From IMG/VR virus record IMGVR_UViG_3300031248_000002: a stretch of 64,000 bases of DNA. One strand, 5' to 3'. Positions 2,084-61,682 of the stretch are shown in pieces (the stretch's first letter is position 1; each line of letters starts with the position of its first letter). Position numbers and translations under genes: made by a program. The DNA is from a virus. A model generated the notes under the pieces. The model did not search any database and was not told the DNA's origin. It worked only from the letters and a program-made list of their open reading frames with translations.

Positions 2084-2086
2084 CGT

Positions 2087-2413: not shown

Positions 2414-2425
2414 AAGCGGGTATAC

Positions 2426-3853: not shown

Positions 3854-3875
3854 TCTTAACGAAAGGAGCGGATAA

Positions 3876-6206: not shown

Positions 6207-6208
6207 CC

Positions 6209-6484: not shown

Positions 6485-7736
6485 TTACAAAGAGACCGCC
6501 GAGCAAAGAGCGCGGATAAGCCGTATCAATTCGGACAGCGTCTTTGTAACAGAAACTTCGGTCAATCAACTTGGTACGGCGGAAGGCGCGTTGCTGCCAC
6601 CGCCGCAGAAAGGCCAGTTCCGTGTTCCATTTGTGTACGGACTTCGCGTCGCGAAACGCCGGTCGTATCTTGGCGGCACTGAGTTCACGCTGACATGGTT
6701 GGAACCAGAAGGGTTAACTAACGTCTCGCATTATAACGTGTATGTAACCGGGCTACTGGATAACAACAAAACTCCGCAAGGTCCGAGCACGGTTCAGCGT
6801 TCCCCGGCTGTGATTCGATTAGTAAACGGCGACATATCGCGGATTTCGTTTATCGTCCAGACGCAGTTAAAAAACGGGATGGTTAGCGATTTGCTGGAAT
6901 CGCCAACGGTTTCTTCCGAGACCTTGGTGCAAGGATTTGTACCCAGTGATCTAAACGGCGTTGGCACGACAGGTCAATTGCTGACGTGGACCGGAGCCAC
7001 CGCGACACTAATCGGACCGGGCGCAACAAACGAAATTCTAACCGGTGACGGTGTCGCGATACCGGTGTTCCGCAGCCGCGCAACTTTGGATCTCGTGGAG
7101 GGCCGAAGCGCGCTGACAACCGCGAACCGCATTGTGCTTGTTGGATCAGCTGGGGTTGTTACTCAGTTAGGGAGTCTGGGAACAACGACGACGGTTCTGC
7201 ACGGGAACGCTGCCGGATCGCCGTCGTTCGGCGCGGTTTCGCTTACCACCGATATCACCGGGACGTTACCGATCGGGAACGGCGGGACGAATAAGACGTC
7301 ATGGACCGCCGGAAGCGTAGTATTCGCTGGGGCCGGAGGCACCGCTTTAGCAGAAGACAACGCGAATCTTTTCTATGATGATACAAATAACCGGTTGGGA
7401 GTCGCAACAACCGCCCCAAAATCCACCTTAGAAAGCGGCGGTACCTTCGGGCTCAAAGTCAAAAGCATTGTTGCTGGGGATTCTCCGTACACTGCCGCTG
7501 CCGAAACCGTTATCCTCGCAGACGCTACTGGCGGAAATATAATCGTTAATCTTCCAGTGTTAAGTGGAGTCTCCGGCCGAATTTATCACATAAAGAAAAC
7601 CGATTCGTCTGTGAACACAGTAACGTTAGATGGAGATAGTAGCGAGACTATTGATGGAGCTACGACTCAGATTTTAACCACTCAGTATCAAAGTCTCATG
7701 ATTTTCTCCGGACCGTCTGAATGGAGTATTTTGTAG
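6474..7736 (+). CDS. tail fibre protein (420 aa)
   Basis: It contains the motif TTVLHGNAAGSPSFGAVSLTTDITGTLPIGNGGT...LFYDDTNNRLGV, which I recognise as typical of phage tail-fibre repeats. The GTG start is uncertain. Confidence 0.6.
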   Translation: MQSSYKETAEQRARISRINSDSVFVTETSVNQLGTAEGALLPPPQKGQFRVPFVYGLRVAKRRSYLGGTEFTLTWLEPEGLTNVSHYNVYVTGLLDNNKTPQGPSTVQRSPAVIRLVNGDISRISFIVQTQLKNGMVSDLLESPTVSSETLVQGFVPSDLNGVGTTGQLLTWTGATATLIGPGATNEILTGDGVAIPVFRSRATLDLVEGRSALTTANRIVLVGSAGVVTQLGSLGTTTTVLHGNAAGSPSFGAVSLTTDITGTLPIGNGGTNKTSWTAGSVVFAGAGGTALAEDNANLFYDDTNNRLGVATTAPKSTLESGGTFGLKVKSIVAGDSPYTAAAETVILADATGGNIIVNLPVLSGVSGRIYHIKKTDSSVNTVTLDGDSSETIDGATTQILTTQYQSLMIFSGPSEWSIL

Positions 7737-15711: not shown

Positions 15712-15915
15712 CTATTCGGACTCCGGCCCTACACCGTCTTCGTATCGCCGCCACGGAGCCTTCCCGCGATCCGCGAAATGCGCATCTTGGCACCGGCTGT
15801 GGTTTAGATGCACTTCTAACGACGCGAGATTGTGAAAACCTTCCGAGCAGAACTTGCAGACCCAATTGGCGTACCGGGTGTCCGGTACCGCGTTGTCGTC
15901 GAAGTCAGCGGGCAT
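15712..15915 (-). CDS. C2H2-like zinc-finger mini-protein (67 aa)
   Basis: It contains the pattern CKFCSEGFHNLASLEVHLNHSRC. Confidence 0.45.
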   Translation of the reverse strand: MPADFDDNAVPDTRYANWVCKFCSEGFHNLASLEVHLNHSRCQDAHFADRGKAPWRRYEDGVGPESE

Positions 15916-16432
15916 TAGACGCCTCCTTAGCTTTCAGGACCTCGTGCAAATACCCCATTGCGTTGAACATCGTTGCGCAGATGCTTTCTTCTAGATCGGC
16001 TGGGTCCGCGATTCCACGATGCAGCTTCCACCACGCGAACAAATGCCGCAACGCCGACTTCATGTATACCGACAACGGCATCCCTTTCTGCCAGTTGTCG
16101 CCGTCCCGCAGCGTTCCGTCCGCTTGTACGCGGTGCTTGTTCAAGTACTGCGCGTACCGTTCCAGGACCGCTGGCGACAGGAACGCTTCATAGTCCAGCT
16201 TATTCGCGTCGGTGTCGCGAGTTGCGCCCGTGTCGAATTTGCGAATTGGTATGTCCAGCTTTGGAAGCTGGAGATCCTGAATACCTCGGTACTGCGAAGT
16301 CGTTGGTTCCTTCATTTGTAATTCCTCTTTAGGAGAAATATTAAGCGGGTTCGCAGTACAAATCGGACAAAGCGGGTTATTGCAACCTTTCCAAACTAGC
16401 CCTTCAAACATATTTACCCTTTCGTCGGACAT
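15905..16432 (-). CDS. dATP/dGTP diphosphohydrolase-like (DUF5664/MazG-like all-alpha NTP-PPase) protein
   Basis: The segment FDTGATRD..KLDYE..SP.VLERYAQYL..HR...DG..R.GDNWQKG.P...YMKS.LRH matches the phage dGTP_diPhyd_N-type pattern as I remember it. An N-terminal CNNPLCPIC cluster is present. Confidence 0.5.
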   Translation of the reverse strand: MSDERVNMFEGLVWKGCNNPLCPICTANPLNISPKEELQMKEPTTSQYRGIQDLQLPKLDIPIRKFDTGATRDTDANKLDYEAFLSPAVLERYAQYLNKHRVQADGTLRDGDNWQKGMPLSVYMKSALRHLFAWWKLHRGIADPADLEESICATMFNAMGYLHEVLKAKEASNAR

Positions 16433-21852: not shown

Positions 21853-22619
21853 CAGACGATCACCATTAAACCTTCCGGCTGGAAGTCTCGGCACTCGAAC
21901 TTCCCATCACCCGCCGGATACCCGCGTTGGTTTGTCACGACGCGCGTCCGACGGATCGTCTGGTCGTCGTTCTCATGGGTATGTCCGTAGATCCACAGAT
22001 CGGGTTGCCGTGTTTCTATTACCGGAACCATGTCTAATGAATTAAATGCAGGCTCCAACGGCCCGTTACGGTACTTGGTCTTCGAGTATCTAACCGGCGC
22101 GTGATGCGAGATAACTACGCGCGGTCCGGCTAACGGCTCGTCAAACCAGTCGTGAAGTCTCGCGACGAACTTTTCGTGTAACTCGACGCTTCGGTGTGGC
22201 GTGAACTTTGTTCCGTCCGCGTTCCGGATTAGCTGGAAATCGGACATCGCGTACTTTGCGTCGTGCATTGCGTTCCAGTCCGAATCTGCGAACCACGTCC
22301 ACATCGTACCGCCGAAGAAATTGACGCCGTCTAGACTAATTGGTTTATCCGACAATAACGAGACGTTCGGGCAGTTTACGTTTAGCCAAAAGGCAAAACT
22401 TGCCTCTGAGGTATCCATCGGCAATTTAGTGTAGTATTCGTGGTTACCCGCAACATACAACACAGGTTTAGCCCAGTCGTAAAGGAAACGGCGAAGCGGC
22501 GAGAAATTCACGAATGAAATTATATCTCCAGCTAACACTAATACATCCGCATCTGCGTCAGCCGGTAGCGTCCAGTCGCCGAATTCCAAATGCAGGTCGC
22601 TGTAGATAAGCAGCTTCAT
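21852..22619 (-). CDS. calcineurin-like metallophosphoesterase (255 aa)
   Basis: Motifs seen are YSDLHLEF, AGDI, GNHEYY, SHHAP and YGHTHE. Confidence 0.8.
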   Translation of the reverse strand: MKLLIYSDLHLEFGDWTLPADADADVLVLAGDIISFVNFSPLRRFLYDWAKPVLYVAGNHEYYTKLPMDTSEASFAFWLNVNCPNVSLLSDKPISLDGVNFFGGTMWTWFADSDWNAMHDAKYAMSDFQLIRNADGTKFTPHRSVELHEKFVARLHDWFDEPLAGPRVVISHHAPVRYSKTKYRNGPLEPAFNSLDMVPVIETRQPDLWIYGHTHENDDQTIRRTRVVTNQRGYPAGDGKFECRDFQPEGLMVIV

Positions 22620-24355
22620 TAGAACAAGTCTCCCGGCAAAATTAACGTCGGCTTCTTCGACTTCTTACGCCGCCACGACGTGGCGGTAACGGGCCGAAAC
22701 GCGCGGGTGACACTCGACGTGTCCAGCAACTTCCGTTCCGTCCGCAACGAGGCTTTGAAATAATGCCCGCGCCAGTAGCTTACGCCCCCAGTACCTTCGA
22801 TAGCAGGTAAAACCAACGCGGCCGCTTTATCGCCGCACAGAACACAAACGCGGTAACCTTGTTCCATAAACCGCGCGGCTTTCTCAAAGTCGCGGCGGAC
22901 AAGGAAGAAATAGGCGTTTTCGCGAAGAACCGCAGCCGGGTGTAGCGTAATGACGAAGAGATTCGGGTCCCAGTCGGCGATTCCGGATGCGGCAAGGTTA
23001 CCTCTGGAGTCCCCGTGGTACCAGTCGTACTGACGACAAATCTGTTCGGCTTTCTTCCGGGTCTGGCCGTCCGGATACTCGTTAGCTTCGCCGCGACAGT
23101 TATGGTTGACCAAACCTTGCGCCACATAACTTTCATCTTCTTCTACAGACAATGAATAAATACCCCGGTTCCACTTTTGCTCCGCAATTTCGACTACCTC
23201 CGATTCCATAAACAAGTACTCATGTTCATCGTTATCCAACAACGACAGGATCGAATCGGGTGCAGTACATGGAACGTGTATAACAGAGTACCCGGCTTCA
23301 GCAGCCAGTTTTCTTTTTAAGCTGTTTCTTTCGGTAACACGGGCTTGATTATTATTTGTTCCCGGACCATCAATCTCGATCAGAACATTGCCTACCTTGA
23401 AATCAAAGTTGAACGGACCTAAAGAAAACTGTGATACCGGATCACGTCCCGCAGCTAATAAAACAGCATGAACTTCCGGCTCCCCCAATCCGATCCAAGG
23501 AAAATCTCCTACTCCTAGCAACTCACGTGTCTTAGCCGTTGCAAGACGGCTTTTAGCGTGCGCTTCTGCACTTAGGTTTTGAAGATTGTGTTTACCTTCT
23601 CTAATCAAATCGCGAGTAGCTGCATTCGCAGCTTTTGTTATTAGGTACGGATCTCTTGTTCCATTCCGGTAATTTTCCTTTAGCTTTCTAGAGATGGCTT
23701 CGGAATCATAGGGAGCAAATTTGCCTTGACACTCACGTGAACAAAACGCGAGAGTATGAAACTGATTTTTGTGCCCTCTATTAAAGACCTTTCCACAGCC
23801 CAAACAACGCTCGGCCACAACTGTTATTGTGTCTCCGGCTCTTAAGTCCGAGGCTCGTTTCCAACCAACGGCTGTCATGAACAAGTGATCTAGACTAACT
23901 GTATAATGTGACTTATGCCCTCTGGAGTCCACTCGGACTATTTTTATCACCGAAGACTCTGAAGCTATTCTAACCTTGTTTAGAACGGACCTGAATCTTC
24001 CAAGGTGAGTCAGAACTAAATCCCCCGGCTGTACTCGGAGCATTTGTCGATATCCAGTTGATGTCAATACTTCCGTCTTTGAGGAAGCAAAGCAACGCAA
24101 TGTATTCGCGATTATGACGTCCGCACGTTCTAAACCTAACGGACGCAGAAACGCATGGAACGTAATGTCACCGGAAGCGCCGACTAGCGGGGTACGTTTC
24201 AGGGCTTCGTTTTCGCCGGGGCCTTCCAGCAAAAGAGCAAACTTCGGAGACGCCGGAACCCAGTCCGGAACGAACGAATGGGAATCGGCGGACCATGGGC
24301 ATAACGCGCATAACGAGGGTTTGCTACGAACGCCGAGGATCGGAAAAGTAGACAT
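22619..24355 (-). CDS. family-4 uracil-DNA glycosylase-like protein (phage polymerase-associated type) interrupted by an intein
   Basis: The exteins carry CALCPW, LEGPGENEA, PLVGASG, ANTLR|C|RGE (matching the UDG4 N.vKCRP motif) and HPAAVLR. ATG at 24355 was chosen because the ORF-track TTG at 24370 overlaps the tRNA. The spliced product is about 246 aa. Confidence 0.8.
   Translation of the reverse strand: MSTFPILGVRSKPSLCALCPWSADSHSFVPDWVPASPKFALLLEGPGENEALKRTPLVGASGDITFHAFLRPLGLERADVIIANTLRCFASSKTEVLTSTGYRQMLRVQPGDLVLTHLGRFRSVLNKVRIASESSVIKIVRVDSRGHKSHYTVSLDHLFMTAVGWKRASDLRAGDTITVVAERCLGCGKVFNRGHKNQFHTLAFCSRECQGKFAPYDSEAISRKLKENYRNGTRDPYLITKAANAATRDLIREGKHNLQNLSAEAHAKSRLATAKTRELLGVGDFPWIGLGEPEVHAVLLAAGRDPVSQFSLGPFNFDFKVGNVLIEIDGPGTNNNQARVTERNSLKRKLAAEAGYSVIHVPCTAPDSILSLLDNDEHEYLFMESEVVEIAEQKWNRGIYSLSVEEDESYVAQGLVNHNCRGEANEYPDGQTRKKAEQICRQYDWYHGDSRGNLAASGIADWDPNLFVITLHPAAVLRENAYFFLVRRDFEKAARFMEQGYRVCVLCGDKAAALVLPAIEGTGGVSYWRGHYFKASLRTERKLLDTSSVTRAFRPVTATSWRRKKSKKPTLILPGDLF
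23099..24094 (-). mobile_element. intein (332 aa) with Zn-ribbon and Vsr/DUF559-like endonuclease insert
   Basis: It starts CFASSKTEVL (Cys1), has block B SLDH and block F IYSLSVEEDESYVA, and ends LVNHN followed by +1 Cys. The insert contains CLGCG...CSREC and FDFKVGNVLIEIDG....R..LAAEAGYSVIHV. Confidence 0.8.
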
Positions 24356-24360
24356 CAATT

Positions 24361-24450
24361 TGGTGGGCAAGGAAGGAGTCGAACCTTCAATCCCCTAAGG
24401 GGAGCCGGGGTTACAGCCCGGTGCGGTTCGCCAGTCTCCGCAGCTTGCCC
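24361..24450 (-). tRNA. tRNA-Tyr (GTA), long variable arm, CCA encoded
   Basis: Hand-folded. Acceptor GGGCAAG/CTTGCCC, D stem GCGG/CCGC, anticodon stem CCGGG/CCCGG with loop CTGTAAC, a variable arm with CCCC/GGGG, and T arm GAAGG-TTCGACT-CCTTC. Confidence 0.9.
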
Positions 24451-24635: not shown

Positions 24636-24711
24636 TGGTGGACCCCGCTGGATTCAAACCAGCAACCTGTCCGGTGCAAGCGGACTGCTCTGTCAATTGA
24701 GCTAGGAGCCC
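24636..24711 (-). tRNA. tRNA-Ala (TGC), CCA encoded
   Basis: Hand-folded cloverleaf with anticodon loop CTTGCAC, the G3:U70 alanine identity pair, and T arm GCTGG-TTTGAAT-CCAGC. Confidence 0.93.
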
Positions 24712-26283: not shown

Positions 26284-27212
26284 TACTTATTCCTTTTTCT
26301 CGCCAACATCCCCCACAACTTCTCCATGTCAGCGGGCATTTCAGCCGGTAACTTTACGCCCCGAGCCTTCGCGGTTTGTGAATCGCTTGGAAGCGTACAG
26401 TACAAGAACTCCGATGTCTTCTCGATCGCGTTTGTCTTCACGCGCGTCCGGATAATAAAGTCAAACGCGCCTTCGACCAGTTTTTTCGCCGCGCCGTGAA
26501 TCAGCATAGAATTCTTCTGCCGGTATTTTGGCTTCGAGTCGCCGCCCGCAAGATCCTCGACGCGTTCTTTTTCGGTTTCTTTGAACGTCAGGATTTTGTG
26601 CCAGCGTTTGCCGGTCCGGACATTGTACATGTTCAGGTAGTCTTTTACCATCCGGACGGTTCCGTTCAACACCATGCTCCAGTCACGGGTTTCCAGTTGC
26701 AAACCGCTACGACGAGCGTCCGAAATCTCGCGTTCATTCTTCGGCAGGATGTTTTCGCCGATGTATTCCTCAAGCTGGACAAGCTGCGCCTCGCTGCCGC
26801 CGTCCCAGAACACGAGGTCAATCGGCACGTCGTATACTTCTGGCCACAGTTTTTCTGGCGTCTTCAGAAACGTCGTCAGCGTGTTGTAATCGGTTAATCC
26901 TTCTACCTCGTACAAATGCGACAACATATCGGGCGTCGCATCTTCTTTCACCGTCCGCAAGCCGCTTCCCCCTAGCTCGGTTGAGAAATACAACACGTCC
27001 AAACCGATACGCAGGAGATCCCGGATTACAAACGTCTTGCCGGTCCCGGTATCGCCGTAAATCATTGTCTTAACGGGATCGTCGTCGCGTTCGTCCGCCC
27101 GGTAAACGCGGACTTTGCTAACCGGCGTTGGTTTTATCGCCGAATCGGTTTTCACTGACACTTTAGGCCCCGCTGCCGCCGGTTTAGCAGTTAGGTTCAA
27201 CGCTTCTGGCAT
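26283..27212 (-). CDS. AAA_24/Sak4-like P-loop ATPase (309 aa)
   Basis: Walker A is MIYGDTGTGKTF and Walker B-like is LVFWDGGSE. It is a RecA-like phage recombination ATPase type. Confidence 0.65.
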   Translation of the reverse strand: MPEALNLTAKPAAAGPKVSVKTDSAIKPTPVSKVRVYRADERDDDPVKTMIYGDTGTGKTFVIRDLLRIGLDVLYFSTELGGSGLRTVKEDATPDMLSHLYEVEGLTDYNTLTTFLKTPEKLWPEVYDVPIDLVFWDGGSEAQLVQLEEYIGENILPKNEREISDARRSGLQLETRDWSMVLNGTVRMVKDYLNMYNVRTGKRWHKILTFKETEKERVEDLAGGDSKPKYRQKNSMLIHGAAKKLVEGAFDFIIRTRVKTNAIEKTSEFLYCTLPSDSQTAKARGVKLPAEMPADMEKLWGMLARKRNK

Positions 27213-28128
27213 CCGCTTCTCCTATCTGTTCGTTAAGTAACTGCGCTTTGTAAAACTCCGGCAGACCGCGTCGTAACCCACGTTCTATCTGCGGCCACGC
27301 GAATTTCCACAACGCGGACGCGATGTAATCCTTTTCTTCACGAAGCGTATCGGCGGACAATTCTTCCAGTAACACTGGGATATCGCGCATTGAACCTTGC
27401 AAAGTACCGTCGTCTCGCAAATGCTGGATGACTTTGCGCCACCGCGCCTCGGTTCGTAACGCGACGATTAACTTTGCGATCACATCGTTCTTCGACGGGT
27501 TCGCTTCGCCCCATTCTTTCGCGTGCCGTTCGCGGAACTCCGCACGGACGATTTTGGCGATCAAAAGTTTTCCGTCCACGCCGAACACGTTGCCGTCCCG
27601 AGGCTTCAGCACTATACCTTCAATCGGACCGCCGAGACAAGATTCGCGTTTCAGCAACTCGTTGAGAGTATTGGTGAAGTCAGGAGCGGAAATCTGGAAC
27701 TCGCCATACGACGGGACTGGCGTGAAGTCTAGACGCTGCGCGACTTCTCGTTTCTCTTTCGGCGGCAGGAATCGGGATGGTTCGGTTTCGATATCGAAAA
27801 GCACAATGTTACCGGACGGTAGCATCGAATACGCCATTACGTTATGTTTCGGCTTCGACAGGTACTCGCCGCGATATGTCCAGCCGGGGATAAGTGCTTC
27901 GCGACGTTTCAAAATTTCCTCGACGCCGACGCGAAACATGTGTCCGGCCGGGGCCGGAACCGGGATGTCCGCGCCTTTGCTCCGAACGATCACGTCGTCA
28001 CCGACTCGGCCAAACGATATCTGCGACCCGTCGATCTTTTCTTCCGCGACGACCGGGACGGTCAACAACGGGTCTAACGCCCGGTGCCCCAGGTTCAGCA
28101 CATGGGAGTAGCTTGACAGTCTCTCCAT
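27184..28128 (-). CDS. ATP-dependent RNA-ligase-like nucleotidyltransferase (314 aa; RNA versus DNA ligase not resolved)
   Basis: Motif I is EEKIDGSQ, III is YRGEYL, IIIa is IVLFDI, IV is EGIVLKP and V is LLIAKIVRAEF. Confidence 0.7.
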   Translation of the reverse strand: MERLSSYSHVLNLGHRALDPLLTVPVVAEEKIDGSQISFGRVGDDVIVRSKGADIPVPAPAGHMFRVGVEEILKRREALIPGWTYRGEYLSKPKHNVMAYSMLPSGNIVLFDIETEPSRFLPPKEKREVAQRLDFTPVPSYGEFQISAPDFTNTLNELLKRESCLGGPIEGIVLKPRDGNVFGVDGKLLIAKIVRAEFRERHAKEWGEANPSKNDVIAKLIVALRTEARWRKVIQHLRDDGTLQGSMRDIPVLLEELSADTLREEKDYIASALWKFAWPQIERGLRRGLPEFYKAQLLNEQIGEADARSVEPNC

Positions 28129-28862: not shown

Positions 28863-28937
28863 TGGTTCCGAGACTACGACTCGAACGTAGATTAGCGGCT
28901 TCAAAGACCGCCGTCCTACCAATTAGACGATCTCGGA
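28863..28937 (-). tRNA. tRNA-Gln (TTG), CCA encoded
   Basis: Hand-folded. Acceptor TCCGAGA/TCTCGGA, anticodon stem GCGGT/GCCGC with loop CTTTGAA, and T arm CTACG-TTCGAGT-CGTAG. Confidence 0.88.
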
Positions 28938-32652: not shown

Positions 32653-32943
32653 TCACTTCTCCATCGTTGCTCTCCGCACCACCGCGCTCCACGGTAACCG
32701 CATAACGGGACGTCTGGTAGCGGCGTCGCGTATCGGCCGCACCGCGTCCACAATCCGCCACCACGCGCCGCGATCCGGTAACGCGATGACTTCGATTTTA
32801 CCGCACACAACGCACCGCAACGTCCCGCTTCCGGCGTCCGGGACCGGCGTTACCGCTAACATCGACTCTTTAACCGGCCCGGCGAACGCAACCGGGCGGA
32901 ACGCATGGTCGCAGACAGAAGTCAGCTTACCGTCCTTACTCAT
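32653..32943 (-). CDS. hypothetical protein (96 aa)
   Basis: ORF in the operon, with a Cys pair (CVVCG). Confidence 0.4.
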   Translation of the reverse strand: MSKDGKLTSVCDHAFRPVAFAGPVKESMLAVTPVPDAGSGTLRCVVCGKIEVIALPDRGAWWRIVDAVRPIRDAATRRPVMRLPWSAVVRRATMEK

Positions 32944-33385
32944 TCTGTCCGCCGTGCATCAACACAATCTTCGCGCATTCTATTCCTTCGTCCAGCGTCC
33001 GGCAAATAAACCCGCAGCACGTGTTAAGAATCGGGTGCGAGTGCAGGTTATCTTCTTCCATCACGAGAACAATCGGTTTCCGGAACGCGTCTGCCCAACC
33101 GATTTCAATCATCGTGCCGATTGTGATTTTCGTCGCTCCGAGCAGATTCACTAACATCAAATCGCACGTCCGGACGTCGTTCCGGTCGCGCGTCGTGATC
33201 CCTTTCGCAGTCGCGAACGGATGATTCTCGTACGACTGATTGATGACGCCGACTGATTTAAGGAATTCCTTGCCGCGTAAAGGCGACACGCTACCGGGCA
33301 ACCTCGCGGCGACGTACTCGCGCCAGTCCGTGCACTCGCCGAACGTCAGCCCGGAGATCGGGCCGGATAAATAGATTTTTGGCAT
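32936..33385 (-). CDS. nucleoside 2-deoxyribosyltransferase / DNPH1-like protein (149 aa)
   Basis: The N-terminal KIYLSGPISG and the later MIEIGWADAFRKPIVLV match the NDT-family pattern. Confidence 0.65.
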   Translation of the reverse strand: MPKIYLSGPISGLTFGECTDWREYVAARLPGSVSPLRGKEFLKSVGVINQSYENHPFATAKGITTRDRNDVRTCDLMLVNLLGATKITIGTMIEIGWADAFRKPIVLVMEEDNLHSHPILNTCCGFICRTLDEGIECAKIVLMHGGQNE

Positions 33386-36292: not shown

Positions 36293-36493
36293 TTATTGTA
36301 CGTCCGGACCTTGGTACACTTTATCAGACCTCGTCCATTCCGGCGATTCGCACCGGCATTGTGCATAATGCTTACCGCATCGTTTGCACATCCGGAATAC
36401 AAAATGTTTGCTGCGTCCTAATGCCGCGAGTCGTTCGGCGATGTCCGGACACGCGCATTCGGACAAATCGTGGTTACAGTTCATACACCACAT
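36293..36493 (-). CDS. Cys-rich zinc-binding mini-protein (66 aa)
   Basis: It contains CMNC...CAC...CKRC...CRC. Confidence 0.45.
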   Translation of the reverse strand: MWCMNCNHDLSECACPDIAERLAALGRSKHFVFRMCKRCGKHYAQCRCESPEWTRSDKVYQGPDVQ

Positions 36494-36942: not shown

Positions 36943-37173
36943 TTACGTCCTTTCGTCGGCGGATTCTTCAGGAACCGCGAATTCTTTAACCTTACCGTAG
37001 TGTCCGCAAGCGCAACACGTAATCAGCGATTCATCGTCCCATACGCTATCGCCGCCCGGCTCCGTTCCGTCGTCCCAAACCTGTACGGTCATCTGTACAA
37101 CTATGAAGAACGGTTCTTGGCTTTTGCACTCCGGACACGCGATACCTTCTAGGCAATTAGAATTCGTAGCCAC
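36943..37173 (-). CDS. zinc-ribbon mini-protein (76 aa)
   Basis: It contains CPEC...CCACGH. Confidence 0.5.
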   Translation of the reverse strand: MATNSNCLEGIACPECKSQEPFFIVVQMTVQVWDDGTEPGGDSVWDDESLITCCACGHYGKVKEFAVPEESADERT

Positions 37174-37193
37174 GGCTTCTCCCCCGCCTTGTT

Positions 37194-38426
37194 TCAGTTA
37201 ACAATCAACTTCGGAACTTTCTGCTTCTGCTCACATGCCGAGGAGCAGAAAACGTCTTCTGCGCAAGACTCGTCTGCCGCGATCCAATGCGTCCAGCGTA
37301 ACGAACACTCCGGACATTCGTGTTCACAGCGTTTCATGCTGCCGCCGTTACAATACTCCGGTGTCAGACATTTCGAGCAAAGATCGCGATTCGCCAGCGG
37401 AAAAATACACGATTTGTTATCCACACTCTGCAAATGCGACCAGCGAACTCCACACGGACAAGTGTGGTGACATATCACGCCGTCTTGATCGGGCCAATCT
37501 TCGTCCACAATCTGCGCAGTCGGGTCAGTCCCGACGACGGCGGATTTCTTTTTCATCCCGGTCTGAAAACAAACCACGCAAAGATCGCGGTCTTCTTTGG
37601 CAAACGAACACTCCGCCGCGTTCTGCGCTATATCGTGCGACCAGTTTTCGCCGCACGGACAAACGTGCGCGCATACACGGGTTCCCCCCGTGCTCGTCCC
37701 GGTAGACGGGTTCCATGTTTGTGCGCGGACTTTGCTAAAACATTTCGTGCACAGATCGCGGTCTTTTTCCGGGAACTCGCACGCCGTGGCTGTCGCGTTT
37801 ATCGAATGCTTCCAGGCCGTCTGGCATTGCGGACAAACATGATCGCAATCTTTTCTAGCCCAGCCAGCGGTGGACGCAACTACCGCGTATTTCTCCGGCA
37901 GATCCCTGCCAAGGATTTCGTAAATCGCTTTCCGCTGCGCCAATGATTCTACCGCGTTATCGCAATACCGTTCGCGTATCGCCGCTATCGGGTCGTCGAT
38001 CTCCGGTTCCAGAAACGCAATTAACGACGCCAGCATAGTCCCGGTGCGGCCGTGACCGCCGGTGCAGAAAAACAAAACCCGTTTCCCAGTTTTAACCACG
38101 TCTGCGAAGTATTCGACCAGCACGCGCCACATTTCCGCTTTCGGCGCGTTGTAGTCTTGCATCTCGCAGTCGATTATCGTCAACGGCTGAAGATAGCTGC
38201 CTCCAGGAAGATTACCGTTCAGCGTCACCACCCAGTCGATCTCGCTCAGGTTCTCTTTGGTTATCGCGTATTCGCTTCCGGCCCAAACCGTATACTCGCC
38301 GATTTTTACGGGCGTCGCAGCATGACGGCATTTTCCACCTTGGATTACAGTCACGGCGGTTTTATCGACGTCAGCGTTCGCGTTACCGCCGAATACGAAA
38401 CTGCCGAGATGTCGGTCTTGTCCCAT
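37194..38426 (-). CDS. Cys-based (PTP/dual-specificity-type) phosphatase fused to four Zn-ribbon repeats (410 aa)
   Basis: The signature FFCTGGHGRTG (CX5R(S/T); Cys codon 38064-38066) lies about 30 aa after MQDYNAP, which is general-acid-like. ATG at 38426 follows a GAGGAG SD. Confidence 0.7.
   Translation of the reverse strand: MGQDRHLGSFVFGGNANADVDKTAVTVIQGGKCRHAATPVKIGEYTVWAGSEYAITKENLSEIDWVVTLNGNLPGGSYLQPLTIIDCEMQDYNAPKAEMWRVLVEYFADVVKTGKRVLFFCTGGHGRTGTMLASLIAFLEPEIDDPIAAIRERYCDNAVESLAQRKAIYEILGRDLPEKYAVVASTAGWARKDCDHVCPQCQTAWKHSINATATACEFPEKDRDLCTKCFSKVRAQTWNPSTGTSTGGTRVCAHVCPCGENWSHDIAQNAAECSFAKEDRDLCVVCFQTGMKKKSAVVGTDPTAQIVDEDWPDQDGVICHHTCPCGVRWSHLQSVDNKSCIFPLANRDLCSKCLTPEYCNGGSMKRCEHECPECSLRWTHWIAADESCAEDVFCSSACEQKQKVPKLIVN
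37236..37847 (-). repeat. four tandem ~35-aa Cys/His modules (C.H.CP.C..W.H......C.F....RDLC..C)
   Basis: The modules are CDHVCPQCQTAWKH..CEFPEKDRDLCTKC, CAHVCPCGENWSH..CSFAKEDRDLCVVC, CHHTCPCGVRWSH..CIFPLANRDLCSKC and CEHECPECSLRWTH..C...FCSSAC. Confidence 0.75.
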
Positions 38427-38454
38427 GTTTGTCTCCTCGTTTCCAGCGAACCAG

Positions 38455-40824
38455 CTAAGCACGCTCTGGCGAATGTTGCGGTGCTGGCGAATCTTGCGGT
38501 GTTTCCGCGATTTTTTCATCTGTCGCCTCCGACGCCGACGACTCCTCGTTTACCGGGATCGTCGTTGGATAACTGGAAAAACTATACGTTTCGTCTACAC
38601 AGTTTCCGGACCCCGCGCCGTTATTTGTTTCGGCGGGTTCGGGGACACTATCGTCGTCTTCGACGTCTTCAAGAATCTGCGGCGGAGCCTCTTCCGGCGG
38701 CTGTTCTTCATCGTCTTCTACCGGGTCGTCCACGACTAGCTTAAGCTCCGATGCGGGAAACCCGGCCCGCAACTTTTCTCGGTTAGAATTTCTGAACGCG
38801 GCGTTTATGAAAGGCCAGTACGCTTGTACCGGTTTGTTAGCTTGGTGACGACCTAACGCATCTGGATCTGACCAGATCGGACAAAACGCTTCGTTAACCA
38901 ACTGGACGATACGAAGCGGATCGGCGATAAAAGTTAACCCACACGATTGTTTCAAATCCAGTAACGCCATTAACCCTTCGTCACCTCTGCTCAAACCAAT
39001 CGTAAGATTCGTCAGCTTGTTGAAAACCAAACAAGAGTTGTGCTTCAGATTGAAAACACCGTCCAGGAACAACGCATCCGATAACCGCCCGGTCATCCAG
39101 CGCAGCAAATGCGTCGCGATAACCGCCCACTTTTTTCCGCCGTACGACCCGTACCAGCTCATTTTGGTAAAGTACCCGATGGATAACGAAACCACATGGC
39201 ATTTCTTCTCCGGCGGAAGCTCCGGAAGAAAACTTGAAATAAACTTATCGCGAGCTTTAATGCCGAAACCTGCGACTATCTGCGGAGAGATTTTCTTCAT
39301 CGCAGAGGTTAATTTCCAATACGCGTCTCCATCCGCGCGAGTACGCACATGCCGTAGTTCTGCTACGACGCAAAGATACAAATACCCCGCGATCACTTCT
39401 GCGTACTCTCGGACCCGGCCTTTGTCTCCGTTCTCCCAGGAACGGTAAAAGTCGATCATTAACGGCGCTATGGAGACGAAGCTGGACACGAATCGTTCTG
39501 TGTTCGGGTTGTTAATTCGTCTCGGCGGTTTCGGCTTTTCCTCGACGACTAACGCGGGTACGAAGTCCGGCGGAACACGATATACCGCGCCAGACGAACC
39601 GTTGACTAACAGCTTTTCGCCGCTTTTTGTCGCTTTGTATATCGTTGCAGAAACGATTTCGGGTAACAAAAACGCGGGTTTTCCAAGTTCCCGCGCTATA
39701 ATCGCTGCATGACAAGTGGCCGATCCGTTCCGGACAAATATCGCGGCTGCTTTTTGCATCCGAGTATACTCGGACGGCGAGAAGTTCGTTAAGTAGAAAA
39801 ACGTCTCGCTGTCGATAACCGCCGTACTCGACGCGCCTATCGGCATCAAATCTGCGAGTTTTTCGGCGCCATCTGGAATCGCTGTGTCCGACTCCGGAAT
39901 CTTAGAGAACTTCAAAGCGCGGTGCTGCAAGAACCAAAATTTCAAACCGCCCGGTTCATCCGGAGCGTTTTCTGCGCACCATTCTACGTCGCTAGGCCCT
40001 AGATTCTGATGAATCTTTATTAACGCTTTGAACAACGTCGCGAAACGCGGGTCAGACAAAGAAATCTCTACACCTTTTTTCTCGCCGCCTACCAGCGCCG
40101 TCCCTAAGCCTTCGACGGCTTCCACAATCGGGAAGAACGACGTTCCGTGCGTATGATTCGGGTCAGAAGTAAACGCGACTCCAGAATACACAATATTCTT
40201 GGGCACGACTTGTATCACTACGGCCGTGCCGGTATCGGCAATTCCGTTTGCCTCTCGGTACGCCACTGCTTCCGGCGCATTCCACGATTCGTAAACTTCC
40301 AGCGCCGCCGCTATTATCCTGTCAGGTCCGCGAACGGGGATTTTCGTTTTCAGCATTCCGGGCATAGAAGTCGGCGCGCCGGAACGCACAGATACCACAC
40401 GACGATGCAAAATTGGCGCGCTAGGGGAGACACAAATTCTAACTGGCGGAACCGCGACCGGAAGCACCGCGTATTCTGGGACTGAAAGATCGCAAGTATG
40501 GGAAAGACGATACAATCCGGCTGCTTTGCCGCCGATTCGGTCGGCGTTTAAATACTGCTCGACAAACGAAACTTCAGTAACGCCATTCGGCGACGGAGTT
40601 TTTTCTACGGGCGCTTCGTCTTTGTTTTCTGCGCCGGCAACATCCGCAAACACGTTTGTTGACCAGATCAGGTAACAATCGTACAATGTGTGTGCGTGAT
40701 GAGGCCCGGAGTGTCCCGCTTCATTCGTGCAGTAGTATCTAAACTCATTCTCGACCACATTACATTGCCCCGGTGCGCCGGGGTCTTGTGCGGTTTTGAG
40801 AAAATCCCAGATTTTGCACTTCAT
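38455..40824 (-). CDS. PEP-synthase/PPDK-like His-swivel phosphotransferase (dikinase-like) with unrecognised C-terminal domain (789 aa)
   Basis: PPDK_N/ATP-grasp-like features are GGKAAGLYRL, VSVRSGAPTSMPGM and AVVIQVV...GVAFTSDP. The PEP-utiliser mobile domain is NGSATCHAAIIARELGKPAF (His codon 39709-39711). The last ~330 aa match nothing I recognise. ATG at 40824 was chosen. Confidence 0.7.
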   Translation of the reverse strand: MKCKIWDFLKTAQDPGAPGQCNVVENEFRYYCTNEAGHSGPHHAHTLYDCYLIWSTNVFADVAGAENKDEAPVEKTPSPNGVTEVSFVEQYLNADRIGGKAAGLYRLSHTCDLSVPEYAVLPVAVPPVRICVSPSAPILHRRVVSVRSGAPTSMPGMLKTKIPVRGPDRIIAAALEVYESWNAPEAVAYREANGIADTGTAVVIQVVPKNIVYSGVAFTSDPNHTHGTSFFPIVEAVEGLGTALVGGEKKGVEISLSDPRFATLFKALIKIHQNLGPSDVEWCAENAPDEPGGLKFWFLQHRALKFSKIPESDTAIPDGAEKLADLMPIGASSTAVIDSETFFYLTNFSPSEYTRMQKAAAIFVRNGSATCHAAIIARELGKPAFLLPEIVSATIYKATKSGEKLLVNGSSGAVYRVPPDFVPALVVEEKPKPPRRINNPNTERFVSSFVSIAPLMIDFYRSWENGDKGRVREYAEVIAGYLYLCVVAELRHVRTRADGDAYWKLTSAMKKISPQIVAGFGIKARDKFISSFLPELPPEKKCHVVSLSIGYFTKMSWYGSYGGKKWAVIATHLLRWMTGRLSDALFLDGVFNLKHNSCLVFNKLTNLTIGLSRGDEGLMALLDLKQSCGLTFIADPLRIVQLVNEAFCPIWSDPDALGRHQANKPVQAYWPFINAAFRNSNREKLRAGFPASELKLVVDDPVEDDEEQPPEEAPPQILEDVEDDDSVPEPAETNNGAGSGNCVDETYSFSSYPTTIPVNEESSASEATDEKIAETPQDSPAPQHSPERA

Positions 40825-41097
40825 GCAGTTTCTCCCGGTGTCCTTTCTTCTATTTCGTTGTGGAAAACCACAACGGGATAGAGCAAATGACAACAACTGC
40901 GATTAGTATTACTAAAATACACAACAATTCAGCAGCCCTTTCGGGTAAGTCGCGTGGCGCGCGATAAGAAGTTAAACGCCCGGCAGAAGTCGCTTGCCCG
41001 TTAACATCGGGACTAAACGCTTCTGCCGGGGCAGGTTGGCCGGTATGTCCGGCAGCAAAAGTTTCGGTGAACGGTAGCGAAAAGATCCACGGCGGAT

Positions 41098-41358
41098 CTA
41101 GACGCGCGTGATGGTCACACTTCCGGCGGCAATAGCGCTCGCTAACTCGCTAACGTCGTCAACTACAAGCGAGAAGCGGTTTTGTCCGCCGTTACCGGGG
41201 CGCTTCCAGAGGGAAGACGCGAATTCCGGGGTTTGCAGACCCGAAATTTTCGGTTCGATACGAACCCGGAAACGGGTGTTTCCAATCTGTCGATATCCCA
41301 ACACTCCCAGCGGAGTGCTGAGAATTTCGACGTACTGTGTTCCTTCGGTACCAGTCAT
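41098..41358 (-). CDS. hypothetical protein (86 aa)
   Basis: ORF with a strong AAAGGAGG SD. Confidence 0.5.
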   Translation of the reverse strand: MTGTEGTQYVEILSTPLGVLGYRQIGNTRFRVRIEPKISGLQTPEFASSLWKRPGNGGQNRFSLVVDDVSELASAIAAGSVTITRV

Positions 41359-47254: not shown

Positions 47255-47458
47255 TTAATTCTCCTCGTCTTCCGGGCGCATCGTCGCGCCAACCTCCACC
47301 AACGCTTTAACAGACCACTCGCCGCCGTCCTTCCATCCGCGCTCGTATCCGCGCTCCCAACCATGCCAGAACGCGCCGATTAGTCCGGCAACGGTAACTA
47401 CCGTCACCAAGCCTATCGCGGCTTGAACCTGCGTCAACGTCCACGTGTACGTTTCCAT
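47255..47458 (-). CDS. small membrane protein (67 aa)
   Basis: ATG at 47458 follows GAGGAGAGG. A TM segment AAIGLVTVVTVAGLIGAFW is present. Confidence 0.45.
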   Translation of the reverse strand: METYTWTLTQVQAAIGLVTVVTVAGLIGAFWHGWERGYERGWKDGGEWSVKALVEVGATMRPEDEEN

Positions 47459-47838
47459 ACGAATCCTCTCCTCGCCGCCCGCAATCGGGCAAAAGCTAAC
47501 CTTTGGCGCGGCGACCGTTCGCGTCGCGACTTCGCGCGGTGACATCGGATACACAACGTCTGCATATTCGCCAGATCGGTTTCCAAGTCCGGAAACTGGT
47601 ACCGGGGTTTAACATGGTCGGCGTCCCACCAAGTCCGGCGGGCCATTTGCTTAAGTGTAAGATTCAATACCTTCCGCTTCGGCCACCCGATCCGTCGGCC
47701 GGTTTCCGCCCGCCACGCTTCGTATTCGGCTTTCAACGCATCGGTATCAACAAAGCACACGGCGCAAACCCCGTGGTCTCTACGACTTAGAAAGTCCTTG
47801 GCGCGGGCTTGGAACTCAGTATCCCGTTTCGGTAACAT
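47434..47838 (-). CDS. HNH endonuclease (134 aa)
   Basis: It contains CAVC...WDADHVKP...NMQTLCIRCHRAKS. This is the first gene of the leftward block. Confidence 0.8.
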   Translation of the reverse strand: MLPKRDTEFQARAKDFLSRRDHGVCAVCFVDTDALKAEYEAWRAETGRRIGWPKRKVLNLTLKQMARRTWWDADHVKPRYQFPDLETDLANMQTLCIRCHRAKSRRERSPRQRLAFARLRAARRGFVWKRTRGR

Positions 47839-60106: not shown

Positions 60107-60586
60107 ATGGTAACGGACTTTGAACTCGGCTGGCTAGCGGGGATCTTCGAGGGCGAAGGTTCGGCGCGAATCTATAAACGAAACACTCGTAGTGTTGGTT
60201 ATTGGGTCCAGATACAGGCAGCCACCAGTACGGATTTCACAATTATAGAGCGTGCATGTAGCATACTCACTAGACTTGGAATTACCTTTTCCCTACGAAA
60301 GAGCAACGGAAACTCTAAGCGTAAGACTCATTGGGCACCTTGCGCTGATATTCGGATTCTTCGTGTTGAGGACTGCCGGAAATTCTTGGAAGTTTTGCTG
60401 CCCATGCTGGGTGGATTCAAGAAGCAACAGGCGGACCTAATTTTGTCGTTCTTTGCTTTGGATAATCGAACGCGTAGAAAAGGGCGAGGTCACAAGACGC
60501 CCAAAGAATTTTTGGATGTAGAAGCTGCATTGTATGCCGGACAGAACTTTAGACCTAAAGCTGTTGTGGCGACCGCAGTTAACTAA
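60107..60586 (+). CDS. free-standing single-motif LAGLIDADG homing endonuclease (159 aa)
   Basis: It has LGWLAGIFEGEGS near the N-terminus, with an I-CreI-like size. By eye it aligns with the endonuclease part of the terL intein. Confidence 0.8.
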   Translation: MVTDFELGWLAGIFEGEGSARIYKRNTRSVGYWVQIQAATSTDFTIIERACSILTRLGITFSLRKSNGNSKRKTHWAPCADIRILRVEDCRKFLEVLLPMLGGFKKQQADLILSFFALDNRTRRKGRGHKTPKEFLDVEAALYAGQNFRPKAVVATAVN

Positions 60587-61605: not shown

Positions 61606-61682
61606 TGCGGGGTATATCAGCCCGGCAGATTGCAAGGTTCATGACCTTGAGGACGTTGGTTCAAATCCAACCCCCGCTACCA
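61606..61682 (+). tRNA. tRNA with CAT anticodon (Met, or Ile2/initiator-like), CCA encoded
   Basis: Hand-folded. Anticodon stem CAAGG/CCTTG with loop TTCATGA, and T arm GTTGG-TTCAAAT-CCAAC. The acceptor has 6 bp (GCGGGG/CCCCGC) plus a U1xU72 mismatch, and the D stem is weak. Confidence 0.75.

Follow-up and report, generated by a model that had tools for sequence, protein, structure and literature searches.

A probable phage phosphotransfer module built on a dikinase-like protein with a predicted all-alpha domain and a linked CX5R phosphatase

The dikinase-like gene and the phosphatase gene found in the window (the whole 64,000-nt stretch of viral DNA that was analyzed) probably belong to a phage-specific phosphotransfer module in which a PEP-utilizing (dikinase) chassis is combined with a new acceptor domain; this reading was given a probability of roughly 0.75. 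The gene set is widespread among phages, where annotations routinely mistake it for a metabolic "PPDK" gene. Its split version has been sequenced and annotated in phages but never analyzed as a system.

The dikinase-like gene (38455..40824, minus strand) starts with an ATG at 40824, preceded at a distance of 8 nt by the ribosome-binding site GGGAGA, and encodes P0001, a protein of 789 aa that is also encoded, in identical form, by public contigs of 64,352 nt. The order in P0001 is a Cys/His-rich N-terminal stretch, an ATP-grasp domain, a His-swivel domain, a helical domain and an acidic tail, and the motifs GGKAAGLYRL, VRSGAPTSMPGM, GSATCHAAIIARELGKPAF, AELRH and SYGGKKWA are present. Every sequence feature listed in an earlier note on this DNA was recovered in place from the ORF list, and its recognition of ATP-grasp and His-swivel patterns was borne out by Pfam (PPDK_N, E=1.3e-22; PEP-utilizers, E=7e-11). 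The N-terminal extension (aa 1-90; 40555..40824, minus strand) gave nothing significant in a Pfam search and was common only to the closest homologue, P0002, in alignment A1. The ATP-grasp nucleotide-binding domain (aa ~91-320; 39865..40554, minus strand; GGKA, VRSGAPTSMPG) corresponds to the PPDK_N match, and the phospho-histidine swivel domain (aa 347-415; 39580..39786, minus strand) to the PEP-utilizers match; the top NCBIfam matches of the swivel stretch are PEP synthase models. In the same alignment, ATP-grasp residues G98, K100, R147-P151, S153-G156, E281, Q300 and R302 and swivel residues C371 and H372 (catalytic His, codon 39709-39711) were invariant across 23 homologues at 27-45% identity. 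The tail (aa 641-789; 38458..38904, minus strand) is acidic (pI 4.1), as had been noticed before, and variable: homologues bear different tails, often Cys-rich, with a bona fide zf-CCHC knuckle in P0003.

The domain at aa ~432-629 (38938..39531, minus strand), presumed to bind the acceptor and to be catalytic, was modelled by AF2 as all-alpha with 12 helices (pLDDT 93.3). Neither its sequence in the PDB nor a Pfam search gave a match, and BFVD returned only four matches, all unnamed phage proteins. It corresponds to phrog_20946, to which no function is assigned. A profile search retrieved 3,383 representative proteins at E<=1e-3 (>3,000 sequence clusters); among 48 sampled, 34 carried PEP-utilizers and 23 carried PPDK_N, and no other Pfam domain was found in these 48 except one SH3_15. 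The domain is basic (median pI 9.0) and is marked by the motifs E-x-R-H, S-x-G-G-x-K-W and D-x-x-F-N-L-x-H-N; the invariant polar/aromatic set comprises E489, R491, W557, G562-G563, W566, D588, H595, N596 and K603. As modelled, it is a previously undescribed fold that takes the place of the pyruvate-binding part. It could instead dock or regulate, or could itself be a phospho-carrier via the invariant His595.

That P0001 is an ordinary PEP synthase or PPDK whose PEP/pyruvate domain has diverged, and its gene an auxiliary metabolic one, is extremely improbable. The PPDK label has been given in V-YDF132, RcZahn and DLP3, and RcZahn gp6, over its N-terminal two thirds, reaches 570 bits on the PPDK model. 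However, the PF02896 TIM barrel was absent from RcZahn gp6, from the V-YDF132 "PPDK" and from P0001, where Pfam gave no match to it even at E<=1, and the TIGR01828 match ends at model position 523 of 865. P0001 scored far under the cut-off on all NCBIfam PEP synthase/PPDK equivalogs (66 bits vs 598). Moreover, when the confidently all-alpha model of the C-terminal domain was compared by Foldseek with the PDB, which presumably includes PPDK and PEP synthase structures, nothing was found under E=1 (best E=1.7), in agreement with the view of the earlier note that this part lacks the PEP/pyruvate TIM barrel. ORF98 of phage J26 was annotated as PPDK, and the overlay with 1GGO in that paper is confined to residues 1-527 (PMC12038007). 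Judged from sequence and model together, P0001 is a dikinase-family protein of a new type and not PpsA/PPDK.

Isolated phages of Vibrio, Rhodobacter, Stenotrophomonas and Rhizobium carry the split version of the gene set (PMC12038007, PMC7326821), which corrects the earlier remark that no described phage system of such architecture was known. Its genes are annotated as "PPDK", "PTP" and sometimes "thymidylate synthase", and genome papers on related phages present a PPDK auxiliary metabolic gene plus a PTP (PMC12038007, PMC7326821). The split-type order is dikinase, PTP, separate helical-domain protein and second PTP, the two phosphatases being distinct DSPs (PTP-A and PTP-B). In RcZahn, gp10 carries the helical domain as a protein of its own (hhalign probability 98.8%), and the dikinase gp6 is without it. 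The occurrence of the helical domain either fused onto the dikinase core or as a separate gene within the same cluster indicates that domain and dikinase are functionally linked.

In two samples of dikinase-bearing loci, a PTP was present in 50/50 and 28/28 loci with the helical domain and in 0/86 and 0/52 loci without it. The PTP started within -20 to +40 nt of the stop of the helical-domain gene in 61 of 65 distinct loci, and wherever the context was checked, a homologous phosphatase gene came after that of the dikinase. An exception is L142, which has a fused dikinase and the small partner described below, 1.2 kb apart, with no recognizable phosphatase ORF in between. The approximately 40 split-type loci form one syntenic phage lineage and are therefore not independent observations of linkage. 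By gene order, the phosphatase is the apparent obligate genomic partner of the helical-domain dikinase. Neither of the genomic results that the earlier note had set against its own reading was obtained, since the C-terminal domain is not a PEP/pyruvate domain and the linkage with the phosphatase is conserved. Of two pattern scans run over 185,579 species genomes, one found nothing and the other a single match, a 48.6-kb metagenome-assembled-genome contig bearing the same gene pair; within what was sampled, the module is restricted to phage and viral contigs.

The phosphatase gene (37194..38426, minus strand) begins 28 nt past the dikinase stop, as first reported, and encodes 410 aa, a DUSP23/archaeal-PTP-like CX5R phosphatase followed by Cys/His repeats. 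Started from an alternative upstream ATG at 38519, the protein would have 441 aa and its gene would overlap that of the dikinase; the 410-aa start is the one in the public gene call. The catalytic PTP/DSP domain (aa ~30-180; 37887..38339, minus strand) carries the motif FFCTGGHGRTG with the P-loop C121-TGGHG-R127 (Cys121 codon 38064-38066), and D91 (general acid), C121 and R127 are invariant in alignment A2. CX5R is kept in 66 of 67 phosphatase sequences, and the signature C[IT]GGHGRT is common to the window phosphatase and the PTP-B clade. The nearest Pfam families are Tc-R-P (37.4 bits) and PTP-SAK (33.4 bits), both above the gathering score, and PTP-NADK. A regular expression located four tandem putative Zn-binding repeats (37233..37847, minus strand) at aa 194-229, 252-286, 319-353 and 367-398, each with 8 Cys/His ligands. 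All four modules reported before were thus found, but the fourth is without the RDLC block, and Pfam gave only a weak zf-UDP/RING-like match. L002 and L003 have the repeats, L004 has different ones and L005 none; the picture of the earlier note is corrected in that they are a lineage-specific accessory outside the conserved module.

In the proposed mechanism, ATP would be bound by the ATP-grasp domain and phosphate transferred to His372 of the swivel with release of AMP, the beta-phosphate being kept on the His and the gamma-phosphate passing to water or Pi, as in PEP synthase and PPDK. The swivel would then bring the phosphate to the all-alpha domain, which, via its invariant polar/aromatic set, would bind a non-pyruvate acceptor and catalyze its phosphorylation. 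The downstream phosphatase would work on the same substrate, either taking off the phosphate just added, in a reversible cycle, or taking off a different one, in a Pnkp-like two-end or two-site logic. In rough terms, a nucleic-acid end or nucleotide-derived molecule and, to the same degree, a protein are the leading candidates for the acceptor, neither of them likely by itself; a small metabolite is rather unlikely, and a glucan, like any other acceptor, is improbable.

A T4 Pnkp-like end-healing or nucleotide-directed module, in which the dikinase would phosphorylate the 5'-OH or another hydroxyl of broken RNA or DNA or of a nucleotide-derived molecule and the phosphatase would strip a 3'- or 2'-phosphate or a terminal phosphate, is a doubtful alternative; the separate target groups would then be different positions of one substrate. 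It is consistent with the kinase-phosphatase gene coupling, the basic helical domain with its invariant Trp, Tyr, Arg and Lys, and the zf-CCHC knuckle of P0003. The nearest phosphatase families, presumably conflict-system DSP clades, are not classical protein-PTP families; the PDB sequence matches, however, are to DSP, DUSP23/VHZ and archaeal PTPs, and the nearest solved structures are protein phosphatases. We know of no dikinase acting on nucleic acids. An RNA ligase is encoded in the window (27184-28128), but 9 kb from the module, and its homologues were not found in split-type phages. Further pointers to RNA are a TROVE/Ro60 protein encoded 7 kb upstream in L144 and a CsrA-like RNA-binding protein that, in Vibrio phage clusters, separates the dikinase from the first PTP (PMC12038007).

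A protein of 86 aa (41098..41358, minus strand), overlooked in the earlier note, adjoins the dikinase in 12 of 12 distinct fused-type contexts examined and, from its conservation there, is the third component of the fused-type module. It carries the motifs MTGTxGT, G-x-LG-x-R, FRVRxEP and R-F-S, and was modelled by AF2 as a beta-sheet with a C-terminal helix (pLDDT 86.6). A protein phospho-switch, modelled on partner-switching modules or on the PTS Enzyme I to HPr step, in which the dikinase would phosphorylate this partner or host proteins and the DSP would reset them, is doubtful as well. It would suit a partner essentially confined to module loci (14 homologues among 5.8 billion proteins), with invariant Ser63, Arg31 and Arg33 and no enzyme-like features, as well as the likeness of the phosphatase to DUSP23/VHZ and archaeal protein PTPs and the varied Zn-finger tails on either enzyme, which resemble macromolecule-targeting modules. 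However, no homologue of the partner was detectable in the approximately 40 split-type loci with dikinase, helical domain and PTPs, and it is therefore not a universal substrate; its fold had no significant match to HPr or STAS or in the search as a whole, the best being type III secretion chaperones (E~0.2). To our knowledge, no dikinase phosphorylates protein Ser, Thr or Tyr. A precedent is the T7 kinase, with its broad action on host proteins (PMC13645617). In the phosphotransfer module favored here, the partner and the Zn-binding repeats would, in this lineage, probably serve regulation or targeting.

A metabolite kinase does not usually have recurrent Zn-finger or knuckle tails, nor a small protein as its dedicated partner, which weakens another doubtful reading, that of a small-molecule kinase comparable with rifampicin phosphotransferase, phenylphosphate synthase or PEP synthase. 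There, the helical domain would bind a metabolite, antibiotic or immune signalling molecule for phosphorylation and the phosphatase would handle the product or a related intermediate; an obligate phosphatase partner would, however, turn this into a futile cycle if its target were not a different position. As far as we know, all characterized non-glucan members of the dikinase family use small molecules, and phenylphosphate synthase is a precedent for an enzyme split into subunits. The weak NCBIfam likeness of the ATP-grasp part to RPH and PigC/RedH, the invariant polar pocket residues, which suit a small anionic ligand, and the NARP1-like genes beside the module in L144 point the same way.

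Reversible phosphorylation of glucan (glycogen), mobilizing host storage carbohydrate in the manner of plant GWD/PWD with the DSP phosphatases SEX4/LSF2, is quite unlikely and would be an analogy only. The pairing of a dikinase with DSP phosphatases defines starch phosphorylation; the two DSPs of split-type clusters parallel SEX4 and LSF2 of plants, the CsrA homologue of the Vibrio phage cluster is a carbon-storage regulator, and the conserved Trp and Tyr might stack on sugars. In contrast, the domain search found no carbohydrate-binding module in any component, fused-type loci, the window included, are without CsrA, and bacterial glycogen is soluble, its breakdown not being known to need phosphorylation. 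P0001 has ATP-grasp followed by His, as in PEP synthase, unlike the order we take GWD to have, and the P-loop of the phosphatase (C-T-G-G-H-G-R) mismatches what is presumably the glucan-phosphatase signature, C-zeta-A-G-psi-G-R.

The module in the window is surrounded by small genes without a Pfam match, and replication genes lie downstream. Its position in a set of early small genes speaks for a possible role in takeover of the host or in counter-defence, as the earlier note proposed, and not in central carbon metabolism. The Zn-ribbon mini-protein (76 aa; 36943..37173, minus strand) and the Cys-rich ORF (66 aa; 36293-36493) previously noticed downstream are present, outside the conserved module; both are kept only in the closest relatives, at other positions, the mini-protein homologue of L003 and L006 lying upstream of the small-partner gene and not behind the phosphatase. 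In one relative (L144), the genes upstream of the module include Prs-like and NAMPT-like ones, and the module adjoins these NAD-reconstitution (NARP1-like) genes. The 273-nt spacer between the small partner and the dikinase in the window contains a long predicted stem-loop (40975..41032, minus strand), possibly a terminator or processing site; the 121-nt stretch folded had an RNA folding energy of -43.9 kcal/mol (z=-2.6 vs shuffles).

The dikinase-like protein, P0001, was found to comprise 789 aa (38455-40824, minus strand), and all module genes in the window lie on the minus strand. A GGGAGA ribosome-binding site lies 8 nt before its ATG (40824), and an in-frame TTG at 40896 is a possible alternative start. 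The motifs quoted in the earlier note were all present in the dikinase and phosphatase ORFs, and its codon coordinates for His372 and Cys121 were right. Pfam matches were obtained to PPDK_N (PF01326, ATP-grasp; E=1.3e-22, 81 bits compared to a cut-off of 27) and to the PEP-utilizers swivel domain (PF00391; E=7e-11, 42 bits compared to a cut-off of 23.1), whose H372 (domain at aa 347-415) was invariant among homologues. The PEP/pyruvate TIM barrel (PF02896) was absent from the Pfam results even at E<=1, and no NCBIfam model scored at or above its cut-off. PEP synthase models were the best NCBIfam matches over the swivel-domain stretch, where we take the TCHAAIIARELG motif to be similar to the PEP synthase His motif. 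The NCBIfam models of PEP synthase and pyruvate phosphate dikinase (PPDK) covered the ATP-grasp and swivel parts only, and the equivalog scores were approximately a tenth of the cut-offs (66 bits compared to 598 for NF005057 and 54 bits compared to 843 for TIGR01828). The missing TIM barrel and these sub-threshold scores rule out PEP synthase or PPDK as the identity of the protein. It belongs to the broader PEP-utilising/dikinase superfamily, with a new, presumed acceptor domain.

With PEP synthase (PpsA) and PPDK the protein shares an N-terminal ATP-grasp domain followed by the phospho-His swivel domain, in the same order. In contrast to those enzymes, an all-alpha domain of approximately 200 aa replaces the TIM barrel, the phosphatase is an obligate partner, and, within the sampled material, the helical-domain family was seen almost exclusively on contigs of phages or viruses. 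Rifampicin phosphotransferase (RPH), phenylphosphate synthase and PigC/RedH likewise have a non-TIM acceptor domain or subunit in place of the pyruvate site, but they show no similarity to the helical domain, and we know of none with a phosphatase partner. The order in RPH is ATP-grasp, acceptor domain and C-terminal His domain, whereas in P0001 the His domain comes before the acceptor domain; an RPH-type dikinase is ruled out by this order, and the NCBIfam RPH model gave 33.7 bits (cut-off 999). Two homologues, P0024 and P0061, have an RPH-like order.

The helical domain spans aa ~432-629, a stretch conserved in 23 homologues with 27-45% identity. Its invariant residues are P440, Y460, A475, Y481, E489, R491, R525, W557, G562, G563, W566, I569, D588, N592, H595, N596, F601, K603 and L622; they include an enzyme-like set of polar and aromatic residues. 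The AlphaFold2 model of this region (pLDDT 93.3, pTM 0.89) is all-alpha, with twelve helices and a few short hairpins, and is therefore not a TIM barrel. Foldseek against 350,542 PDB chains returned nothing below E=1.7, a profile search of PDB sequences gave no match, and four unnamed phage proteins of 326-478 aa were the only matches in BFVD. The earlier note had considered that the dikinase C-terminus might be a divergent but ordinary PEP/pyruvate-binding domain; the all-alpha model and the lack of a PDB match argue against this. The domain falls in phrog_20946, of unknown function (E=4.9e-14 over aa 471-624 in PHROGs). The helical-domain profile A3 scored P0001 at 195.8 bits, and the family motifs E-x-R-[HYW], G-G-x-x-W and D-x-x-[FWY]-[NDT]-x-x-H-N were all found in it. 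Helical domains are basic, with a median pI of 9.0.

When the profile was run against 1.84 billion representative proteins, 3,383 matches were found at E<=1e-3 and 1,860 at E<=1e-10. A Pfam scan of 48 diverse matches found PEP-utilizers in 34 and PPDK_N in 23; the only other domain was one SH3_15, and the remaining matches were short stand-alone proteins. Two giant proteins, P0144 (2,263 aa) and P0191 (1,926 aa), carry two or three stretches matching the profile, and no other Pfam domain was recognised in them.

The phosphatase ORF (410 aa; 37194-38426, minus strand) starts 28 nt past the dikinase stop. It scored above the Pfam gathering cut-off (27 bits each) for Tc-R-P (37.4 bits) and PTP-SAK (33.4 bits), families which we take to come from conflict systems and not from classical PTPs. 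In the phosphatase alignment (A2), C121 and R127 of the CX5R P-loop (FFCTGGHGRTG) and D91 were invariant. Alignment to DUSP23/VHZ and archaeal PTPs in the PDB covered the P-loop and the PxPDFxAP stretch, presumably the site of the general-acid Asp in these DSPs, matching D91. The enzyme shares with DUSP23/VHZ and the archaeal minimal PTPs (SsoPTP, 5z59) a minimal DSP fold, a P-x-D-[FY]-x-A-P-type general-acid loop and a C-x-x-G-x-G-R-[ST]-G P-loop. However, the similarity is weak (E 1e-6 to 1e-3), the best Pfam families of the window's enzyme are Tc-R-P and PTP-SAK, and it is fused to four Cys/His repeats. Split clusters, where the helical domain is a separate protein, have two phosphatases, PTP-A and PTP-B. 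The CX5R motif was kept in 53/54 PTP-A and 66/67 PTP-B sequences, and the P-loop C-[ITLM]-G-G-H-G-R-T was present in 57/67 of the PTP-B sequences. The window's phosphatase carries this signature and hence belongs to the PTP-B clade. A member of this clade in phages DLP3/DLP5, gp141 (MT110073 90756-91532), is labelled 'thymidylate synthase', as is phrog_17568; the label looks like a propagated mis-annotation of a PTP. A paper on the aRES/Adpp phage phosphatase was set aside as unrelated, that phosphatase being a Macro domain.

All four tandem Cys/His modules reported in the earlier note were found, with eight ligands each (phosphatase aa 194-229, 252-286, 319-353 and 367-398), although the fourth lacks the RDLC block. 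The repeats were present in the phosphatases of the two closest relatives; the phosphatase of locus L004 has a different Cys-rich tail instead, and that of L005 (189 aa) has none. Dikinase homologues also bear assorted Cys-rich C-terminal tails (P0003, P0005, P0008, P0009, P0022), including a zf-CCHC knuckle above the Pfam threshold in P0003 (aa ~666-681), a dense CxxC array in P0005, and only a weak, sub-threshold LIM match in P0022 (E=0.065). Swappable Zn modules on either enzyme suggest that they may serve in targeting to a macromolecule. The Zn-ribbon mini-protein and Cys-rich ORF (66 aa) described downstream of the phosphatase gene do occur elsewhere, but in close relatives only and at other positions there.

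A further component, absent from the earlier note, is a small partner of 86 aa encoded directly upstream of the dikinase gene (41098-41358, minus strand). A homologue adjoins the dikinase in each of the fused-type contexts that were examined (the window, L002, L003/L006, L004, L005, L140, L141, L142, L144, L145, L146 and L175), usually just after the phosphatase gene or within approximately 1 kb of it. Only 14 homologues were found among 5.8 billion proteins, with G3, G21, R31, V32, R33, P54 and S63 invariant. The model (pLDDT 86.6) consists of a small beta-sheet and a C-terminal helix, and no significant PDB match was found, type III secretion chaperones being the best (E~0.2). A CsrA-, HPr- or STAS-like identity had no backing from Pfam or Foldseek. 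No homologue was detected by hhalign in split-type clusters, which makes the small partner an accessory component of fused lineages and excludes it as a universal substrate. A long, stable stem-loop in the spacer between the small-partner and dikinase genes (40975-41032, minus strand; -43.9 kcal/mol for a 121-nt stretch, z=-2.6) may be a terminator or processing site.

Three architectures were distinguished: a short-N fused form, as in the window, with the helical domain at ~430-630; a long-N fused form with a PPDK-like N-terminus and the helical domain at ~500-750 (L141, L142, L146, L175); and the split form. The co-occurrence of dikinase and phosphatase genes that the earlier note had proposed to examine was borne out across phage and metagenome loci. 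Among 136 loci with a dikinase N-domain, from IMG/VR, isolates and metagenomes, a PTP was present in 50/50 with the helical domain and in 0/86 without it; in a second scan of 80 such IMG/VR loci the corresponding counts were 28/28 and 0/52, the two samples sharing a few contigs. Among the matches listed, the metagenome scan gave mostly ordinary dikinases, which were used as a negative control. Approximately 40 split loci form one syntenic lineage with terminase and polymerase also in common, and independent support for the phosphatase linkage comes from the fused lineages and the negative controls. The PTP start codon lay -20 to +40 nt from the stop of the helical-domain gene in 61/65 distinct loci, frequently with a 4-nt overlap. 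One exception was L142, where a fused dikinase and small partner had no PTP ORF in the intervening 1.2 kb. A tblastn search with the phosphatase domain against isolated phages returned 15 records; 11 were phages of Vibrio, Stenotrophomonas, Rhizobium or Rhodobacter, which are the host groups where the module is found. These findings show strict operon linkage of the phosphatase with both the helical domain and the dikinase core.

The split form was found in Vibrio phage V-YDF132 (L056, 67585-73227), Rhodobacter phage RcZahn (L057, gp6-gp12) and approximately 40 IMG/VR loci (L007-L055, L197-L225). The gene order is a 'PPDK' of 687-734 aa, a CsrA-like small protein, PTP-A, a hypothetical protein of 330-357 aa, PTP-B and an unknown protein of ~260 aa (phrog_25950). 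Next comes the DNA polymerase gene, immediately in V-YDF132 and separated by two more small genes in RcZahn. In RcZahn, hhalign assigned the helical domain to gp10 (probability 98.8%) rather than to the 'PPDK' gp6; PF02896 was absent also from gp6 and from the V-YDF132 'PPDK'. The fused form of the window thus unites a domain with a dikinase which are elsewhere encoded by separate, adjacent genes. Phenylphosphate synthase is divided into subunits in a comparable way. True homologues of all three functional parts, namely the dikinase core, the helical domain (phrog_20946) and a C-x-G-G-H-G-R-T-clade phosphatase, are carried by Vibrio J26 (vB_VneS_J26)/V-YDF132/SIO-2-like phages, RcZahn and Stenotrophomonas DLP3/DLP5. 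Unlike the window, the split phages have a separate helical-domain protein of ~320-380 aa, a dikinase whose C-terminal ~190 aa are different and of no assigned identity, two PTPs and a CsrA-like gene, and neither the Zn repeats nor the MTGT small partner.

The statement of the earlier note that no such phage system had been described holds in part: split genes were already annotated as PPDK and PTP in genome papers and read as carbon-metabolism auxiliary genes (PMC12038007, PMC7326821), but no paper recognising a system was found. Neither the helical domain nor the three-part linkage was recognised in the literature searched, and no characterised function was found there. The published overlay on PPDK structure 1GGO covers residues 1-527 only (PMC12038007). 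In dozens of genome papers on phages and of public annotations, the module genes are called a PPDK auxiliary metabolic gene boosting host glycolysis; on the evidence here, this label is wrong.

When 185,579 species genomes were scanned with two patterns, sensitive only to members with an FNLxHNGG-type motif, 0 and 1 match were found, the latter a helical-domain and PTP pair on a 48.6-kb contig of a metagenome-assembled genome. Within this limited sensitivity the helical-domain family looks phage-specific. With more than 3,000 clusters at 50% identity, seen almost exclusively on contigs of phages, and no relative of solved structure, it makes up a large enzyme family that is still unexplored. 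The observation is genuine, and the module is conserved and has yet to be characterised. Strict operon linkage makes it a defined, experimentally tractable system, and isolated phages with culturable hosts (Vibrio, Rhodobacter capsulatus, Stenotrophomonas) carry the module.

The ATP-grasp domain, the swivel His and the Cys phosphatase were all shown to be intact, as judged from sequence. By the chemistry of PEP-utilising enzymes, ATP would phosphorylate His372, on which the beta-phosphate would stay, and the swivel domain would then pass it to an acceptor held in the helical domain. The phosphatase would act on the same substrate, reversing the mark or removing another phosphate. To our knowledge, the only known pairing of a His-swivel dikinase with a DSP-type Cys phosphatase on the same substrate is that of GWD (plant glucan, water dikinase)/PWD with SEX4, LSF2 and laforin. 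The phage module resembles it in this pairing, and split clusters even have two different DSPs, but the domain order of the phage dikinase is reversed, the phosphatase P-loop signature differs and the phage genes are adjacent in an operon. No carbohydrate-binding module (CBM45, CBM20, CBM48) was found in Pfam scans of any module component, so the plant GWD/SEX4 analogy does not extend beyond the dikinase-DSP pairing; P0001 as a GWD is ruled out by the absent CBM and the domain order. Two further systems offer functional analogies only, with no sequence or fold relationship found. T4 Pnkp couples a P-loop kinase and a HAD phosphatase on one macromolecule; no Pfam, PHROG or NCBIfam match to a P-loop polynucleotide kinase or HAD/DxD phosphatase domain was found in the module. 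In PTS Enzyme I, the His-swivel domain hands phosphate, derived from PEP through a TIM barrel, to a small protein (HPr) docked on a helical subdomain.

As to the acceptor, we lean weakly toward a nucleic-acid or nucleotide-derived one because of the basic helical domain, the conflict-system phosphatase families, the CsrA-like neighbour in Vibrio phages, the CCHC knuckle, the RNA ligase of the window and the TROVE/Ro60 and NARP1-like genes of L144. The window's RNA ligase matched Bacillus phages only in tblastn, which gives no support for its co-occurrence with the module. The DUSP23-like phosphatase and the small partner make us lean also to a protein acceptor, and none of these clues is decisive. 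DNA hypermodification, with the dikinase as a kinase for 5-hydroxymethyl bases, was rejected for this phage because no thymidylate-synthase/hydroxymethylase homologue was present in gene lists covering most of the window. Our most far-reaching reading, to which we give a probability of roughly one in three, is that the module may be the first dikinase acting on a non-glucan macromolecule. An ATP-driven phospho-His relay through a new catalytic fold would modify a host or phage protein or an RNA/DNA end, a dedicated Cys phosphatase would act on the same target, and thousands of phages would use the module for host takeover or for undoing defence-inflicted damage. Identification of the acceptor would extend the short list of dikinase chemistries and may expose a new host-takeover or counter-defence strategy.

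The contig of a relative, L144, encodes a TROVE/Ro60-vWA protein and also, 2.5-9 kb upstream of its dikinase module, a Prs-like/NAMPT-like pair, which we take to be a NARP1-type NAD-reconstitution pair; these genes (1281-7533) suggest an anti-defence island. None of the four proteins compared with the PADLOC models of anti-phage defence (dikinase, phosphatase, small partner, Zn-ribbon protein) matched a family.

The window is nearly the whole of a 64,352-nt metagenomic phage contig with genes for an SU10-type portal and adaptor, large terminase, DNA polymerase A, RNA ligase and a MazZ-like enzyme. No nucleotide match was obtained when the locus was compared by blastn with 50,697 phage records. 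The early/middle arm that holds the module also encodes functions of the nucleotide and RNA-repair type, namely the MazZ-like dGTP_diPhyd_N protein (15905-16432), the RNA ligase (PF09414; 27184-28128), which adjoins an AAA_24 ATPase, and a nucleoside 2-deoxyribosyltransferase-like protein (32936-33385), all on the minus strand. The only Rfam matches in the window were four tRNAs, none inside the module: Tyr-GTA (24361-24450), Ala-TGC (24636-24711) and Gln-TTG (28863-28937) on the minus strand and Met-CAT (61606-61682) on the plus strand. Promoter and terminator scans gave chance-level results. A protein of ~580 aa in the replication block (22619-24370, minus strand) has a Pfam Intein_splicing match, and an intein is thus possible. 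An HNH endonuclease ORF (47434-47838, minus strand) and an ORF among the structural genes with a weak LAGLIDADG_3 match (60107-60586, plus strand) are probably homing endonucleases.
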